Shown here one piece after another: positions 1,898-55,270 of a stretch of DNA of 64,000 nt (positions are counted from its first letter, which is position 1; each line of letters starts with the position of its first letter). Under the pieces are notes generated by a model. The model saw only the letters and a list, made by a program, of their open reading frames with translations. It ran no database searches and was not told where the DNA came from. Made by a program: the position numbers and the translations under genes. This stretch comes from an uncultured Candidatus Saccharibacteria bacterium (lineage in GTDB: Bacteria; Patescibacteriota; Minisyncoccia; Phycocordibacterales; SBAW01): assembly GCA_964615415.1 (NCBI GenBank), contig CAZTNI010000002.1:4873-68872 (forward strand), read 5' to 3'.

Positions 1898-3586
1898 ATG
1901 GTCCGCTTGCTTTTGTTGGCTGTTGGCAGAGAGGTCCGCGGCATGCACCAGGCCGCGTATGTGCTGGCAGGTTTTGCGTTCGGCTCGCAACTTCTGGCAC
2001 TGGTGCGTGACCGGTTGCTTGCGGGAACGTTCGGTGCTGGTTCGACACTCGACATCTATTACGCTGCGTTTCGTGTGCCGGACCTGTTGTTTGCAACCGT
2101 TGCGTCGCTTTTGTCGCTCTACGCACTGCTTCCGGTGCTCTCAAAATTTGAGACCGAAAGCAATGGGCTTGTAGCATCTTTTTTGCGACAAACACTCCTT
2201 GTCTTTTTTGTCGCAATGGGTGCCATTGCTGCGTGTGTTGCAGTGGTGGCACCGCAGTTGGTTGACCTTACTGCGCCAGGCTTAGCTGCAGACCCAGCAG
2301 CGCGGGATCAATTAATACTCTTGGTGCGCATTTTGCTGCTTCAGCCGATATTTTTAGGAGCGTCTAATATTGTTGCAGCGCTTACGCAACTTCGGCATCG
2401 TTTTTTTCTGTACTCTATTTCGCCACTTCTCTACAACATTGGCATCATTATCGGCATCGTCTGGTTGTATCCGGAGTTCGGTGTGACAGGGCTTGGATGG
2501 GGAGTAGTGTTAGGAGCGTGTTTACACCTGTTGGTGCAGCTACCCTTCTTTTTTACAGAGAAGTCTGCGGGGCATATTCCTCAGACTACGCTGTGGCGAT
2601 CTCTCGGTAAGGTGTTGGTACTCTCGGTGCCGCGCACTATCGCACTTGGTGCAGGACAAATTTCACTCCTTACGCTTATCGCTATGGCGTCCTTTTTTGC
2701 ACCGGGCTCTATTTCTGTATTTATGTTTGCGTTTAATTTGCAAGCGGTACCTCTTACTATTATTGGTGTTTCTTACTCTGTTGCTGCGTTTCCTACACTG
2801 GCGCGATTCCACGCAGAAGGGAACACTCAACAGTTTGTTGCTCATATTGAAACCGCACTACGCCACATTTTGTTTTGGTCTATTCCTGCAACGGTATTGA
2901 CGATCGTGTTGCGCGCGCAAATTGTGCGTATTGTCCTTGGTTCAGGCGCGTTCGACTGGAGCGCCACCCGTCTGACTGCGGCAGCACTCGCGTTTTTTGT
3001 TATTTCTCTTGCTGCGCAAAGCATCTCGCTCCTTATTGCGCGTGCGTACTATGCAGCGGGGCGTACTGCGACGCCGCTTGTGCTAGGTGCGCTGTCGGTG
3101 TTTGTCTCGATCGTCAGCGCGGTTATGTTAGTGAGTATCTTCCACAGCTCGGCACTCACACGCCACTTCCTTGAGGCACTCTTCCGTGTGGACGATATGC
3201 CAGGCACTACGGTGATCATGCTCGCGCTTGCGCTAACACTGGGAGCATTACTCCAAGCAGGAGTGGGGCTGTGGTGGTTTGTACGCGACTTTTCAGTGTC
3301 TTTGCGGGGCCTGGGCAGGCTCTGTTTCCAGAGTTTTGGGGCTTCAGTTGTTGGAGGTGCGTGTGCCTACATAGCGCTTACGGGCATGGGCGCACTCGTT
3401 GACATCAATACTGTGATAGGTATTGTGGCACAGGGCGCAGTCGGTACTGTGGTGGGGGTAGCAGGTACTCTCGTTATTCTGTACACTCTTGCTAATCAAG
3501 AGCTTTCAGAGGCTGTAGCGGCCCTTAAACGCCGCTTTAAGGACTCTCCGAAGGTTGTTTTGGAGCCGACAGACGTCTCTTCCTAA
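1898..3586 (+). CDS. murJ: lipid II flippase MurJ/MviN
   Basis: MviN-type N-terminus (AGTFGAGSTLDIYYAAFRVPDLLF), 14-TM-like hydrophobicity, 562 aa. Confidence 0.85.
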   Translation: MVRLLLLAVGREVRGMHQAAYVLAGFAFGSQLLALVRDRLLAGTFGAGSTLDIYYAAFRVPDLLFATVASLLSLYALLPVLSKFETESNGLVASFLRQTLLVFFVAMGAIAACVAVVAPQLVDLTAPGLAADPAARDQLILLVRILLLQPIFLGASNIVAALTQLRHRFFLYSISPLLYNIGIIIGIVWLYPEFGVTGLGWGVVLGACLHLLVQLPFFFTEKSAGHIPQTTLWRSLGKVLVLSVPRTIALGAGQISLLTLIAMASFFAPGSISVFMFAFNLQAVPLTIIGVSYSVAAFPTLARFHAEGNTQQFVAHIETALRHILFWSIPATVLTIVLRAQIVRIVLGSGAFDWSATRLTAAALAFFVISLAAQSISLLIARAYYAAGRTATPLVLGALSVFVSIVSAVMLVSIFHSSALTRHFLEALFRVDDMPGTTVIMLALALTLGALLQAGVGLWWFVRDFSVSLRGLGRLCFQSFGASVVGGACAYIALTGMGALVDINTVIGIVAQGAVGTVVGVAGTLVILYTLANQELSEAVAALKRRFKDSPKVVLEPTDVSS

Positions 3587-14721: not shown

Positions 14722-14772
14722 GTAGACACAAATATAGCCTAAAACTTGAAAAAATGGTACTTTGTGTCAATT

Positions 14773-14900
14773 GGAGAGATGGCTGAGTGGATCAAAGACA
14801 AACTGCTTTGTCTTTGATCCAGTGCCTGTGGCAAGCGCCGTTGTGAGCTTGCGAACAGGCGCTCGGTGGGCGAACTGGTTCGAACACCCAGTCCTCTCCA
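14773..14900 (+). ncRNA. aberrant tRNA-Ser-like element (128 nt) with a 28-nt palindromic insertion
   Basis: The first 18 nt are identical to the downstream tRNA-Ser (GGAGAGATGGCTGAGTGG). The acceptor 3' strand (CCTCTCC) and a T-arm-like stem (ACTGG/CCAGT) are present. The D-loop carries a perfect 12-bp hairpin, ATCAAAGACAAA-CTGC-TTTGTCTTTGAT, and the anticodon region is expanded. Confidence 0.35.
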
Positions 14901-14919
14901 GTACAGATACAAAGTATCT

Positions 14920-15009
14920 GGAGAGATGGCTGAGTGGTCGAAGGCACCGCACTCGAAATGCGGCGTACCCGAAAGGGTACCGTGAGTTCGAATCTCACTC
15001 TCTCCGCCA
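14920..15009 (+). tRNA. tRNA-Ser (anticodon CGA)
   Basis: 90 nt with CCA; anticodon loop CTCGAAA; long variable arm GTACCCGAAAGGGTACC. Confidence 0.9.
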
Positions 15010-15127
15010 GATGCGGCGCAGAAGCTGCTTTTTTAATACTCCTGTTCACCAAAAATTAATACCAAAGGTGGTCAAATGGATCGGTGTCGACAATGATTTA
15101 GTAGACATAACCGAATTCGCATCCATT

Positions 15128-15364
15128 ATGAAAACAGCAGCAAAAATTATGAGTGTTCCGCTCACGTGGGCGGTCCTTGGTGCCTCAGCAGCGCTTGCGC
15201 AAACAAGTACTACCACTATGGGAACAACTACAACACCAGGTGTACCGAACACCGGCGCAGGAGGCGATTTGCTCACCAATGTGCTCCTGCTTGGCATTTC
15301 AGCGGCAGCTGTAGTGGCAGGCATCGTGTATTTGGTTCGCATGCGTGCAACCCCAGCTGAATAA
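15128..15364 (+). CDS. minimal sortase substrate: signal peptide + Thr-rich 16-aa mature segment + VPNTG sorting signal
   Basis: MKTAAKIMSVPLTWAVLGASAALAQ signal peptide, TSTTTMGTTTTPGVPNTG, then a hydrophobic stretch and an RMR basic tail (classic cell-wall sorting signal). No good Shine-Dalgarno sequence. Confidence 0.5.
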   Translation: MKTAAKIMSVPLTWAVLGASAALAQTSTTTMGTTTTPGVPNTGAGGDLLTNVLLLGISAAAVVAGIVYLVRMRATPAE

Positions 15365-15376
15365 TATAGATCGACA

Positions 15377-16057
15377 GTGACTAGCGGATGCCTCAAGCGG
15401 CATCCGCTATTCATACTGTCTTTCGAATTGTCTCGTTACTGTATGTATATGGAGGAACGTATGCGACGCTACACACTAGTAGGTGCACTCACGTTGGTTG
15501 CAGCGTGTGTGTTTGTTGGCACGGTAGTGCGTGCAGTTTTTTATGCGCCCGATGCAGAGAGTCCGGTGCTTATGGAAGAGGTGTCGTCTGCGAGAGGAAT
15601 TGGCGTACCGACGCGCCTGCACATCCCGGCTGCGGGAGTTGATGCTTCGGTACAGCGAACAGGTATTACGACAAAAGGAGCCATGGCAGTTCCAAGTAAT
15701 TACGCTGATGTGGGGTGGTATAGGTATGGTACTCGACCAGGAGAAAAAGGGAGTGCGGTTATCTCAGGCCATCTTAATAACGGTTTTGGGCTCGATGGAG
15801 TGTTTGCAGATCTGTCGCGATTGAAACGGGGAGACGAAATTTTTGTTGAAACAGATCGTGGCGAGGAGATGCGGTTTGTTGTAGTAGAGGTGGAGACATA
15901 TCCATACACAGAGGTGCCTACAGAATTTCTGTTTAATAGGAAGGATGTTCCGCGACTCAATCTTATTACGTGCGACGGTGCATGGGTGGGGAGTGAAAAA
16001 ACTTACGATCGTCGGCTTGTGGTCTATGCTGAGTTTAGGGAAGCGGATCAAATATAG
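15377..16057 (+). CDS. sortase (transpeptidase)
   Basis: N-terminal TM anchor; catalytic His in AVISGH, Cys in LNLITCDG (TLxTC), Arg in YDRRLVVYAE. The start is probably the internal Met at about 15449. Confidence 0.8.
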   Translation: MTSGCLKRHPLFILSFELSRYCMYMEERMRRYTLVGALTLVAACVFVGTVVRAVFYAPDAESPVLMEEVSSARGIGVPTRLHIPAAGVDASVQRTGITTKGAMAVPSNYADVGWYRYGTRPGEKGSAVISGHLNNGFGLDGVFADLSRLKRGDEIFVETDRGEEMRFVVVEVETYPYTEVPTEFLFNRKDVPRLNLITCDGAWVGSEKTYDRRLVVYAEFREADQI

Positions 16058-17408
16058 ACGGCGTGAGGCGGGTGTTGGTGAGGATATCGGCAATACGTTT
16101 GCCGCCATAAACTGAGGGCAGGATGCCAACGCCATTGCAGCCTAGGTTGTACATAAGGACCGGGTTGCGTGGTTCGGTGCCGACGCGGCGCACACCGTTT
16201 GGGGTATAGCCCATGAGTCCATGCCAGCAAAATGCATACTCGGTTCCGCCCTCAGGATAATTTTTATAGTTATGCACCAAAAACTCGTCTATTTGCCCGT
16301 GCGACTCGTCCGAACAGGCGTCGCTCCGAAGATAGGTTGCTTGGTCGGGGAGTACTTTCTCTGGTCCACCGGTACATATAAGGTTATACGAAACATTGCC
16401 TTCGTGTTCGTGTGGACGACGGGTAAGGTAGTAGTACGGCTCACCCGTAGGATCCTTCGTTTGTGTAGCGTTTTTGGGGAAGTAGCTAATTGCTGTGGGT
16501 GAGTTTGCAAGTGGCTCTATGTAACCGGCCATGTAGCCGATCCGACCATTTACTAAGTGATGGAAATTTGGTTCGATCTCCTTTCCTGCGTTGTTTGTAA
16601 TATGAAAATTTTCAAAGCCGTTCGTGCAGAGAATGATGCGTGACGCGGTTATAGTATGTGTAGCGACTGTGGCTACACCGTTTGTACTCCCAAGGACCAC
16701 TGTCTTTACCGGACTTTCTTCAAAAAATGAAAATCGATCGGTATATTTCGTGGAAAGATATCCAACCAGCTCTTCTGTAAAGAGCGCACTATTCATGCAT
16801 CCTTTTTGAAAGGAGATGCATGCAATATAGTCTGTATTTTTCGCTTCAAGGAGCGATAGTATGTCTGCGTGTGGCGCGACTGTGTAAAGGTTTTTGTATT
16901 CCGGAGGGATGTGGGCAAGGATGGGCGACTCAGCGGCAACGACAATTTGTTCTGGCTGCAGTCCGCCTGCGACACGTAGCGCATTATTTTTAAAGTAGTG
17001 CAGCAGTTGTTCCTCTGTGGTAACACCGGTGTAGCCCGTAAAACGGTAGAGTGGTGTGCGTAGCTTTGCAGTAGCTAGTATCTCGTCAATAAGTGTCCAT
17101 GCAGACTCGACCGAGCGTTGTCCGTCGATGGCGCGTTCGAGTCCAAACTCTTCTACAAGTTCAAAGAGCGGCCGCTCGAAGTAACTCGTCACTTGGCCGG
17201 CGTTATGACCGGTGGCGCCATGAGCAATTTTGTCTGCTTCAAGCAATACAACCGTTTTGTCTGTTTTTGTGAGTGTAAAAAAAGCAGTAACGACTCCTGC
17301 AATACCACCGCCTACAATAAGCACGTCGGTAGAAAGGTCTTGTGCAAGGGGGATAACGGGACGAGTGCGAGCAAGTTGTTTGATCCAGGGAGATTCGTTC
17401 GGGCGCAT
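16035..17408 (-). CDS. FAD-dependent oxidoreductase (DAO family)
   Basis: N-terminal dinucleotide-binding motif DVLIVGGGIAGVVTAFFL; 457 aa. Confidence 0.75.
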   Translation of the reverse strand: MRPNESPWIKQLARTRPVIPLAQDLSTDVLIVGGGIAGVVTAFFTLTKTDKTVVLLEADKIAHGATGHNAGQVTSYFERPLFELVEEFGLERAIDGQRSVESAWTLIDEILATAKLRTPLYRFTGYTGVTTEEQLLHYFKNNALRVAGGLQPEQIVVAAESPILAHIPPEYKNLYTVAPHADILSLLEAKNTDYIACISFQKGCMNSALFTEELVGYLSTKYTDRFSFFEESPVKTVVLGSTNGVATVATHTITASRIILCTNGFENFHITNNAGKEIEPNFHHLVNGRIGYMAGYIEPLANSPTAISYFPKNATQTKDPTGEPYYYLTRRPHEHEGNVSYNLICTGGPEKVLPDQATYLRSDACSDESHGQIDEFLVHNYKNYPEGGTEYAFCWHGLMGYTPNGVRRVGTEPRNPVLMYNLGCNGVGILPSVYGGKRIADILTNTRLTPSIFDPLP

Positions 17409-54133: not shown

Positions 54134-55270
54134 ATGCCTCGTAAGCGGAAGGCTCTTGCACTTTTTTCAATTGGTATCGCACTCCTGCTTCCTGTCTTTA
54201 CCTATGCCCAAATACAGCCGAGCGGGGCGGGACTTGTGCCGTGCGGCGTTACACAAGACAGTCCTTTAAGTACAGAAAAAGATGTTGGAGTTGCTACAGA
54301 ATGCGAAGCCTGCCACTTGGTGCAGCTTACGCAAAATATTATCCACTTCCTGATAGGCCTTGCGGTTTCAATTGCAGTATTGATGTTTGCGTGGGCGGGT
54401 ATCCTCTTCTTTACCTCGAATGCAAATCCGGAGAAGATTAACAAAGGTAAGCGCATCTTCGGACAAACATTGTTTGGGTTCCTATTAGCGCTCTGTGCGT
54501 GGATTATAGTTAACACCCTCCTTTTTATTCTTATTGACCAACAGCAGTTCCCGCAAAGCACCTGGTTTGAAGTTGAATGTGCGAAAAGTCGGGCTGTAGT
54601 GGCCGATAAGGAGTTTGGTCAAATCGTGCTCGGCGCTATTGGTAACGTAGAATCTATACCGCTCTTTAAAATACAAGATGGCACCAGGCCGGACGGACAG
54701 TATTCATGTCCTGCTGGCTTTACGTACGACACGACTGCGCGTATGTGTCTGAACGGACAAGGGGGTGCAGAAGAGCCCGACTTTATTGCGCCTCTCGGCA
54801 GTGGAGCATTCACTCCTAATAGTGAAGCTACTGTCGATTTTGGATCTTGCGGAGGGGAGGGAAGTATTGGTAGCAGAATTATGCGGTGTGCCACCTTGTA
54901 TGCGGACTCAAGAGTAAGTTCTGCTAAGTGTAGTCCCAATGTAGATGGAGGAAACCTGGCATGTGCATGTATGGTAAACAAAATTCTTAACGGCGCCGGT
55001 ATTTTGTCTATAGATGCGGACAGTGTTCCTGATATGGTTGCGGCCCTAAAAGCTGGCAGAGGAAGGCAGATTTCTATTCAATCTGCGCAGCCTGGAGACA
55101 TTGTGTTTTGGCAATACACGAGCCCAAGAAGAAGCCATGTGGGTATTTGTGCAACTCCAGGCTGTACCCAGGTATACAGTAATTCCTCAAGTCAGGCCGT
55201 TGTACGTCTCACTACAAGTGATTATCTGGGCGTCGACCCTTCATCTGTTTATCGGATAAATGACTTCTAA
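54134..55270 (+). CDS. fusion: pilin-like N-terminal module (same family as 37661-39118) + C-terminal NlpC/P60-like cysteine peptidase (cell-wall hydrolase) domain
   Basis: N-terminus: signal peptide, CxxC, then IIHFLIGLAVSIAVLMFAWAGILFFTSNANPEKINKGKRIFGQTLFGFLLALCAWIIVNTLLFILID. C-terminus: Cys in NLACACMVNKIL and His in PGDIVFWQYTSPRRSHVGIC (papain-like Cys...His order). Confidence 0.6.
   Translation: MPRKRKALALFSIGIALLLPVFTYAQIQPSGAGLVPCGVTQDSPLSTEKDVGVATECEACHLVQLTQNIIHFLIGLAVSIAVLMFAWAGILFFTSNANPEKINKGKRIFGQTLFGFLLALCAWIIVNTLLFILIDQQQFPQSTWFEVECAKSRAVVADKEFGQIVLGAIGNVESIPLFKIQDGTRPDGQYSCPAGFTYDTTARMCLNGQGGAEEPDFIAPLGSGAFTPNSEATVDFGSCGGEGSIGSRIMRCATLYADSRVSSAKCSPNVDGGNLACACMVNKILNGAGILSIDADSVPDMVAALKAGRGRQISIQSAQPGDIVFWQYTSPRRSHVGICATPGCTQVYSNSSSQAVVRLTTSDYLGVDPSSVYRINDF

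Follow-up and report, generated by a model that had tools for sequence, protein, structure and literature searches.

Sortases are known for anchoring folded proteins. Single-target sortase systems place one sortase gene beside the gene of one cognate target with a non-canonical motif, the targets being large and folded, and the serine-rich repeat glycoproteins combine a Ser/Thr-rich, disordered, wall-anchored cargo of very long repeats with glycosyltransferases of their own and an accessory Sec system. Here we describe a two-gene cassette in a 64,000-nucleotide (nt) stretch of DNA from an uncultured Candidatus Saccharibacteria bacterium (contig CAZTNI010000002.1; the whole stretch is called the window below), in which a gene for a 78-amino-acid (aa) precursor with a minimal Thr-rich cargo and a sorting signal lies upstream of a sortase gene. 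In our reading, to which we give a probability of about 0.55, a class-F-like sortase with a non-LPXTG motif attaches the oligo-threonine peptide to peptidoglycan. The parts are familiar, namely a sortase, a sorting signal and a linked target; the recognition motif, the extreme reduction of the cargo and the conserved expression layout are new. Unlike in the single-target and serine-rich repeat systems, the cargo consists of a few threonines, no genes of those kinds are linked to it and the signal is shared by other proteins. A full-text literature search found no description of a sortase paired with a minimal Thr-rich peptide.

The closest described enzymes are the class F sortases, whose physiological role is unknown; only the enzyme of Propionibacterium acnes has been biochemically characterised, and in Actinoplanes a knockout of four class F genes at once was without phenotype (PMC13251363, PMC8225981). 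The window sortase is like them in its N-terminal membrane helix, its His/Cys/Arg residues and its length of about 200 aa, and class F is its best class by about 90 bits. The two differ in motif and in one catalytic position. Read from their genes, the substrates adjacent to sortases of this clade carry [T/A/V]PNTG, with LPxTG in 4 of 56, whereas LPXTG is the motif of the P. acnes (Cutibacterium acnes) enzyme (PMC8225981). This clade also keeps Arg185 without exception, a position at which Asn has been reported for actinobacterial class F sortases in place of the catalytic Arg (PMC8703055). On the substrate side, the nearest precedent for an abundant, wall-anchored sortase substrate without known function is GspA, a glycosylated protein that Actinomyces oris expresses at a high level and anchors with its housekeeping sortase (PMC9282373, PMC6381275). 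The mature product here is 10–25 aa, no gene for an LCP enzyme or a glycosyltransferase was found in linkage with the cassette, and glycosylation of the peptide is proposed by analogy. One study records a sortase family in over half of the genomes of the candidate phyla radiation (PMC6744442).

The two genes of the window have the following parts:

15128–15364, + strand: precursor gene, 78 aa, from the ATG at 15128 to the TAA at 15362–15364 (list of open reading frames (ORFs) and direct sequence reading)
15128–15199, + strand: signal peptide, with a basic n-region (MKTAAK), a hydrophobic core and an ALA↓Q end, judged by eye
15200–15253, + strand: predicted mature peptide QTSTTTMGTTTTPGVPNT, 18 aa including the Gln, from the predicted ALA↓Q cut
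15242–15256, + strand: sorting motif VPNTG, then GAGGD (direct reading)
15269–15337, + strand: hydrophobic span, 23 aa (direct reading)
15338–15361, + strand: basic tail RMRATPAE, then the stop (direct reading)
15451–15456, + strand: Shine-Dalgarno sequence GGAGGA of the sortase gene, 4 nt before the ATG at 15461 (direct reading)
15461–16057, + strand: membrane-anchored sortase, 198 aa; the frame is open over 15377–16057 and the likely start is the ATG at 15461
15770–15772, + strand: sortase His104, in SGH (sortase alignment A2)
15971–15973, + strand: sortase Cys171, in LITC (alignment A2)
16013–16015, + strand: sortase Arg185 (alignment A2)

The precursor reads, in order, MKTAAKIMSVPLTWAVLGASAALA, QTSTTTMGTTTTPGVPNT and GAGGDLLTNVLLLGISAAAVVAGIVYLVRMRATPAE, and 11 of its 18 mature residues are Thr or Ser. 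Its extended sorting-signal peptide is TTPGVPNTGAGGD, and the VPNTG, the 23-aa span and the RMR at the C terminus, together with the N-terminal leader, give the full LPXTG-type layout. An earlier note on this DNA, made from the letters alone, had read a 78-aa ORF with a signal peptide, a Thr-rich segment, VPNTG and an RMR tail, all of which are found at these positions; its lengths needed correction, the mature part being 18 aa with the Gln (17 aa in the sequence as that note wrote it) rather than about 16, and the hydrophobic stretch 23 aa rather than about 20. The Thr run is encoded by mixed codons, and no DNA tandem repeat was found in the region of the small gene. All 64 kb were scanned in six frames for xPxT[GASN] followed by a hydrophobic tail, and the precursor was the sole ORF with the complete architecture.

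The precursor belongs to a large family. A word-index protein search returned 35 homologues of 64–127 aa with the same layout, and a profile built from 30 of them matched 601 clusters (50% identity) at E ≤ 1e-3 and 206 at E ≤ 1e-10. The earlier note had named a lack of homologues as an outcome that would speak against the small ORF; the profile search finds hundreds. NCBIfam holds no dedicated model for the family. In the family alignment (A1), A24, Q25, P37, P40, N41, T42 and G43 are invariant, corresponding to the Ala-Gln junction and to P-x-x-P-N-T-G, while the TT-PG-V that precedes the motif, the AG(G)D that follows it and a number of residues within the span are nearly so. Nearly all members share one plan: A↓Q(T), a Thr/Ser/Gly-rich run and PG-[VTA]-P-N-T-G-AGG(D). 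The A↓Q junction is present in 171 of the 177 members examined and is followed by Thr in 129 of those 171. Their predicted mature parts have a median of 23 aa and a minimum of 10 (for example QTTTPGVPAA), with Thr at 33%, Ser at 12% and Gly at 12% of residues; Lys occurs in 6 of the 171 and in none of the 97 short ones. A parallel survey for Gln at position +1 in other exported proteins used a heuristic that picked mostly membrane anchors. The signal and the composition of the family are conserved while the run itself varies, and the constraint therefore lies in the export and sorting apparatus and in composition, and not in a folded cargo. Judged by this conservation, the small ORF is a real gene. 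Nine members, P0212 and P0170 among them, contain TPG[V/I/A]PNTG 2–5 times internally, before the terminal signal, and resemble concatenated units, which may reflect slippage in low-complexity DNA or may be functional.

The pairing with the sortase was examined across genomes. A genome scan with the single sortase sequence gave no match, and alignment A2 was used instead, with one genome per species; sortase relatives are encoded at 494 species loci, of which the best 80 were kept and 75 had enough upstream DNA. The best 80 loci are labelled Kaiserbacteria, Adlerbacteria, Nomurabacteria, Zambryskibacteria, Paceibacterota or Parcubacteria, and many auto-binned entries among them carry the label 'Saccharibacteria'. 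In 56 of the 75 loci, a same-strand ORF with a sorting signal ends 0–209 nt before the sortase match. The motifs of these 56 adjacent substrates are TPNTG (21), APNTG (9), VPNTG (6), other motifs beginning with V, A, T, I or M (16) and LPxTG (4), so that the link which the earlier note drew between sortase and motif holds for [T/A/V]PNTG-type signals across the clade. The predicted mature part is 25 aa or less in 29 of 52 adjacent substrates, making the short form the commonest partner of the sortase; proteins of 80–430 aa with ordinary cargo and the same signal fill the upstream slot in other species. The small gene and the sortase gene also adjoin in five independent contigs with differing flanks, four times with the small gene upstream on the same strand and once convergently. 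A word-index search with the 45-aa sorting signal returned six small proteins, too few to define a substrate range.

An independent metagenome sample, picked solely by DNA able to encode PGVPNTGAG, points the same way. A real sorting signal is present in 35 of the 120 matches listed, and among those listed the minimal peptides (13–21 aa mature) have a same-strand sortase directly downstream in 9 of 9 cases. As the earlier note had claimed for this one locus, then, a sortase stands beside a minimal Thr-rich protein with a full sorting signal, and the pairing is conserved (56 of 75; 9 of 9). On these gene neighbourhoods, the two-gene cassette is conserved in Paceibacteria (Parcubacteria, candidate phyla radiation). 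Clustering of the neighbouring ORFs at 85 loci found nothing else conserved, the top neighbour (23 of 85) reflecting lineage synteny.

Several other arrangements were seen around the sortase. A second type of small protein, with a mature part of about 85–93 aa comprising a Tyr-rich 'MPVLYN...YYYGNGTYY(D/N)P.T.TYGG' module and PGVPNTGAGG, is encoded directly upstream of the sortase in other species (loci L103, L127, L140, L155, L167 and L180; proteins P0275 and P0296) and matched no family; among the metagenome matches listed, 6 of 7 of these 'MPVLYN...YYYGNGTYY' proteins have a same-strand sortase directly downstream. At four further loci (L075, L082, L083 and L085, about 2400–3000) the upstream substrate has three Cys repeats (GC..ALGYS..TG.PC.G) and a canonical LPxTG. 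In-frame fusions of precursor and sortase occur at L063:2683–3447 and in P0299, for example ...APNTGAGGDAAMNFALLGSSAAIAIAAL-QSGSDDLPLRLDIP...; they look like deletions or pseudogenes, because the catalytic domain would face the wrong side of the membrane. The other 85 of the 120 metagenome matches listed (within L094–L213, for example L100:2211–3890, − strand) are the antisense of a conserved membrane-protein motif, APAPVFGTPG, in a protein that, judged from its sequence, looks like a PstA-type phosphate permease.

The sortase itself is well supported. It matches Pfam Sortase (PF04203) at 83.3 bits against a gathering cut-off of 26.6 (E = 1.5e-23), and His104, Cys171 and Arg185 are invariant across 41 sortase homologues, bearing out the catalytic His (SGH), Cys (LITC) and Arg that had been picked out earlier. 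An AlphaFold2 model (pLDDT 92.6) has an N-terminal helix at residues 2–27 followed by a β-rich catalytic domain. Of the 115 PDB chains that Foldseek matched to it at E ≤ 0.001, the 50 listed are sortases without exception; the query-normalised TM-scores, with the helix included, are 0.51–0.62, and structures of classes A, C and E score about equally. Sequence and fold searches of the PDB found no close solved relative of the window sortase, and the structure consequently gives no class assignment. Among the NCBIfam class models, class F (NF033748) is best at 129.4 bits, followed by class E (36.6), while the class C model scores 23.6; database records label close relatives from Kaiserbacteria, Adlerbacteria and Paceibacterota 'class F sortase'. 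An identical sortase sequence is present in assemblies of the runs SRR14271365, SRR14271366 and SRR14271372. By these scores we call the enzyme class-F-like and not a tested member of class F. A co-variation analysis of sortase columns against substrate motif positions 1, 3 and 4 returned only noise from variable columns. At the end of the sortase helix (residues 22–30; 15524–15550), alignment A2 has a conserved [A/V/L]-x-A followed by [V/L/T]-[W/F/L]-Y-[A/S]-P; the [A/V/L]-x-A, in which A25 is nearly invariant, resembles a signal-peptidase site, as in Actinomyces SrtA.

The cassette also has a recurrent expression layout, whose elements in the window, together with those that flank it, are:

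14920–15009, + strand: tRNA-Ser(CGA) (ARAGORN and Rfam)
15013–15028, + strand: terminator-like hairpin with a T run after the tRNA-Ser (folding)
15045–15127, + strand: conserved upstream block of the small gene (three-species footprint)
15045–15050 and 15056–15061, + strand: TTCACC and TTAATA, 11 nt apart, in the upstream block
15072–15077, + strand: −10-like TCAAAT in the upstream block
15083–15091, + strand: GGTGTCGAC in the upstream block
15097–15106, + strand: TTTAGTAGAC in the upstream block
15369–15424, + strand: strong intergenic stem-loop, after the small gene and before that of the sortase, with a core 11-bp stem of 15382–15392 and 15399–15409 (RNAfold)

In the three-species footprint, the upstream block is kept in loci L092 and L093 (59–64% protein identity) while the flanking DNA diverges, and it is retained there even though the tRNA lies on the opposite strand. 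In many species the layout begins with TTCAC-N6-TTCAC, which repeats every 11 nt; a −10-like hexamer follows some 10 nt later and GGTCGA roughly another 6 nt on, and 35–45 nt then lead to the ATG. GGTCG is present in 26 of 43 substrate upstream regions by hand count, compared with about 5.5% of control upstreams; TTCAC-N6-TTCAC with at most one mismatch is present in 14 of 45 substrate upstreams compared with 14 of 509 controls (p = 1e-9), some of the control matches being themselves upstreams of substrates or sortases. The window copy of the repeat is two mismatches from the consensus, and a search for a regulon found no further site in the window. No Shine-Dalgarno sequence precedes the small gene of the window, and 41 of 43 small genes lack one; the window sortase gene has its GGAGGA. 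The upstream block suggests that the small gene probably has its own promoter. Direct repeats of 11-bp period that replace the −35 element are a hallmark of OmpR/PhoB-type regulators, and the promoter is possibly activated by such a regulator.

Regulatory genes are encoded near the sortase at some loci. By sequence reading, a large hybrid histidine kinase (membrane domain, kinase and receiver) is encoded convergently, directly downstream of the sortase gene, at about 14 loci, and an OmpR-family response regulator is encoded at L036:4575–5246; these neighbours may be linked to the direct-repeat block of the small gene. A 336-aa exported protein at L022:4544–5551 (leader end AFAQA) has upstream of it GGTCGCATTATCAG, which resembles the leader motif of the small gene, and may share its regulation.

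The 96-nt intergenic region between the two genes (15365–15460) folds at −37.0 kcal/mol (RNAfold, z = −5.5), and a hairpin of different sequence occupies the same position at 40 of 50 related loci (z < −2). It is likely a terminator, an attenuator or an mRNA stabiliser. Rfam found no known RNA family in the small-gene leader or in the hairpin.

Together these elements suggest the following course. The small gene would be transcribed from its own promoter, and sortase transcripts would be kept below peptide transcripts because the hairpin follows the small gene, giving more peptide than enzyme; the peptide is probably abundant. The 78-aa precursor would be exported by Sec and cut by signal peptidase at ALA↓Q, and the new N-terminal Gln may cyclise to pyroglutamate, a cap suggested by the near-invariance of that Gln. 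The C-terminal hydrophobic span and RMR tail would hold the precursor in the membrane, where the neighbouring sortase, through His104, Cys171 and Arg185, would recognise TPG-VPNT↓G-AGGD and cut between Thr and Gly. The 18-residue peptide, as a thioester intermediate, would then be passed to a free amine of the lipid II stem peptide and end covalently on peptidoglycan as (pyroGlu/Gln)-TSTTTMGTTTTPGVPNT linked to the stem peptide. The window itself encodes MurJ, the lipid II flippase, so that the chemistry needed at the wall is at hand. The result would be a dense, lysine-free oligo-threonine 'brush' that alters surface chemistry in a cell lacking an outer membrane. O-glycosylation of the peptide is possible from its composition (Thr 33%, Ser 12%), by analogy with the extracytoplasmic Ser/Thr-rich disordered regions that are O-glycosylated in streptococci (PMC12041528).

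Several observations weigh against attachment of the peptide to the wall by a sortase of this class. The window precursor does not match the LPXTG-anchor model TIGR01167 (NCBIfam) at E ≤ 0.1, and 13 of 30 precursor relatives match it weakly (best E = 7.6e-4), so that the model comparison proposed in the earlier note fails for the window protein and is borne out faintly for its relatives. The window sortase, at 129.4 bits, does not reach the curated class F cut-off of 166 bits. No adjacent substrate was found at 19 of the 75 loci, and none of 8 long Gly-rich or Ig-like proteins with a PGVPNTGAGG signal, among the metagenome matches listed, lies beside a sortase. Since these longer proteins are encoded away from sortase genes, the sortase probably serves several clients, and the minimal peptide is its usual partner in the genome rather than its sole client. 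Conservation within the hydrophobic span (N51, L55, S58, A59, G65, Y68 and L69 in A1) is unusual for a sorting signal and could mean that the membrane remnant has a function of its own. The count of 40 hairpins in 50 loci comes without a baseline from other gene ends in these genomes. As for glycosylation, a Pfam scan of 30 ORFs, confined to the window, found no glycosyltransferase, LCP or accessory Sec gene; GT2 enzymes are encoded near 9 and GT4 enzymes near 8 of 85 loci, and no glycosyltransferase is conserved beside the cassette. Finally, the support, comprising the genes, family, synteny, catalytic residues, fold, variant motif, hairpin and upstream block, is computational throughout, and it is from this that we infer every biochemical step, the acceptor, the abundance of the peptide, its pyroglutamate and its glycosylation.

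Of the other explanations, the most serious is that the small protein acts as SafA does. SafA is a 52-aa single-span protein encoded beside the actinobacterial housekeeping sortase, and it blocks cutting of SrtA by signal peptidase at an AXA-type site after the helix of that enzyme (PMC9282373). By this account the C-terminal piece (GAGGD, span and tail, about 36 aa) or the uncut protein would bind the sortase helix and control stability or localisation of the enzyme, in one variant by shielding its [A/V/L]-x-A from signal peptidase, and the Thr-rich part would be incidental. The tight gene linkage, the [A/V/L]-x-A that the sortase clade keeps directly after its helix, with its nearly invariant A25, and the conserved span residues of the small protein all fit. 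We nevertheless consider it unlikely, as the strongest conservation in the family falls on the cleavage motif PG-x-PNTG, which SafA lacks together with any signal peptide; SafA is not a substrate, is encoded downstream of its sortase where the small gene is upstream, and has the opposite topology to the N-out/C-in arrangement expected here after export, and its FPW (exoplasmic) and PGP motifs were not found in the small precursor (PMC9282373). The 80–430-aa cargo proteins that occupy the same position with the same signal also make it better described as a substrate slot than as a cofactor slot. Less probable still, we think, is a released product, in which the sortase, or water acting on the acyl-enzyme, frees a 13–20-aa signal, or in which the acceptor is not peptidoglycan but, for instance, a lipid or S-layer protein. 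Signalling peptides are typically of this size, the small gene has a conserved block of its own upstream, in which direct repeats stand 11 nt apart in a subset of loci, and a convergent hybrid histidine kinase lies beside the sortase at about 14 loci; that linkage, however, is limited to some lineages, and the low-complexity cargo varies in sequence and in length (from 10 to more than 100 aa) between close relatives, unlike a receptor-specific ligand. Our literature search found no sortase for which a free signalling peptide is the normal product.

The earlier note had suggested a pilus tip or cap, and the nine family members with 2–5 internal PG-x-PNTG copies could be read as units of a polymer or pilus-like fibre joined by the sortase through Lys isopeptide bonds or head to tail through the N-terminal amine. 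Such a fibre is very improbable, and the suggestion is not supported: short mature parts contain no Lys (0 of 97; 6 of 171 overall), the mature N terminus is Gln, which may cyclise, and not Gly, and internal repeats can come from slippage in low-complexity DNA. Nor was any hallmark of sortase-assembled pilins found, whether a Lys pilin motif or E-box, an Ig-like body or a class C sortase, the cargo being 10–25 low-complexity residues, and no second pilin or sortase gene recurs in the neighbour clustering. Scarcely credible is a chance ORF or a decayed remnant of a larger surface protein, to which the shortness of the gene, its missing Shine-Dalgarno site, an open antisense frame over 15046–15414 and the rare in-frame substrate–sortase deletions (L063, P0299) might point; against it stand hundreds of intact homologues with the same tripartite layout, the short form as the commonest sortase partner, the conserved upstream block and downstream hairpin, and the mixed Thr codons with no DNA repeat. 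The antisense ORF was dropped as a gene in its own right: it has none of the features of the precursor, and the same antisense reading arises by chance elsewhere. It reads ...PPAPVFGTPG... because the DNA pattern for PGVPNTGAG is the antisense of APAPVFGTPG. A precursor of a ribosomally synthesised and post-translationally modified peptide was likewise dropped, the leader being an ordinary Sec signal with no modifying enzyme linked.

Upstream, the tRNA-Ser(CGA) and its terminator (14920–15028) bound the cassette and lie outside it. The 'tRNA-Ser pair' reported earlier reduces to this one tRNA, called by both ARAGORN and Rfam, and a look-alike. The latter, an element of about 130 nt (14772–14901, + strand), starts like tRNA-Ser (GGAGAGATGGCTGAGTGG), has a T-arm-like end (GGTTCGAAC...CCTCTCC) and a 13-bp internal hairpin, and is called by ARAGORN at a relaxed threshold only, as tRNA-Thr(tgt) with a 36-nt intron; the Rfam tRNA model is silent. 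Downstream, a convergent gene for an FAD-dependent oxidoreductase (DAO family, 16035–17408) shares the last 23 nt of the sortase gene (16035–16057), 3′ end over 3′ end, and is followed by a thioredoxin-reductase-like gene. The overlap recurs at L092:3391–3413, the DAO gene of L093 is convergent without overlap, and FAD-oxidoreductase genes also lie near the small gene in more distant contexts. Elsewhere in the window, in otherwise housekeeping surroundings, the 378-aa product of 54134–55270 (+ strand) matches a type IV secretion system pilin domain (PF18895, E = 5.9e-10).

If a 10–25-residue peptide is indeed the usual genomic partner of this sortase, it would be an unusually small natural sortase substrate, and through the pair class F, which is poorly understood, acquires a concrete client that can be put to the test and a new motif, PG-[T/A/V]-PNTG-AGG, that could also serve sortase-based protein ligation. 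Going further, the oligo-threonine peptide might be a bulk wall component rather than a displayed protein, made by the ribosome and fixed by the sortase as a side chain to many stem peptides of the peptidoglycan; its Gln-Thr N terminus could be an acceptor for cross-linking or modification, its output could be set by a response regulator acting on the direct-repeat block, and its membrane remnant could tune the sortase. This extension is speculative and we regard it as improbable; if true, these cells would encode in a gene the counterpart of interpeptide bridges and wall polymers, which other bacteria build enzymatically. The candidate phyla radiation is mostly uncultivated and its envelope is largely unknown; the cassette occurs there in hundreds of species, and a short synthetic peptide together with a 170-residue soluble enzyme offers a direct handle on it.

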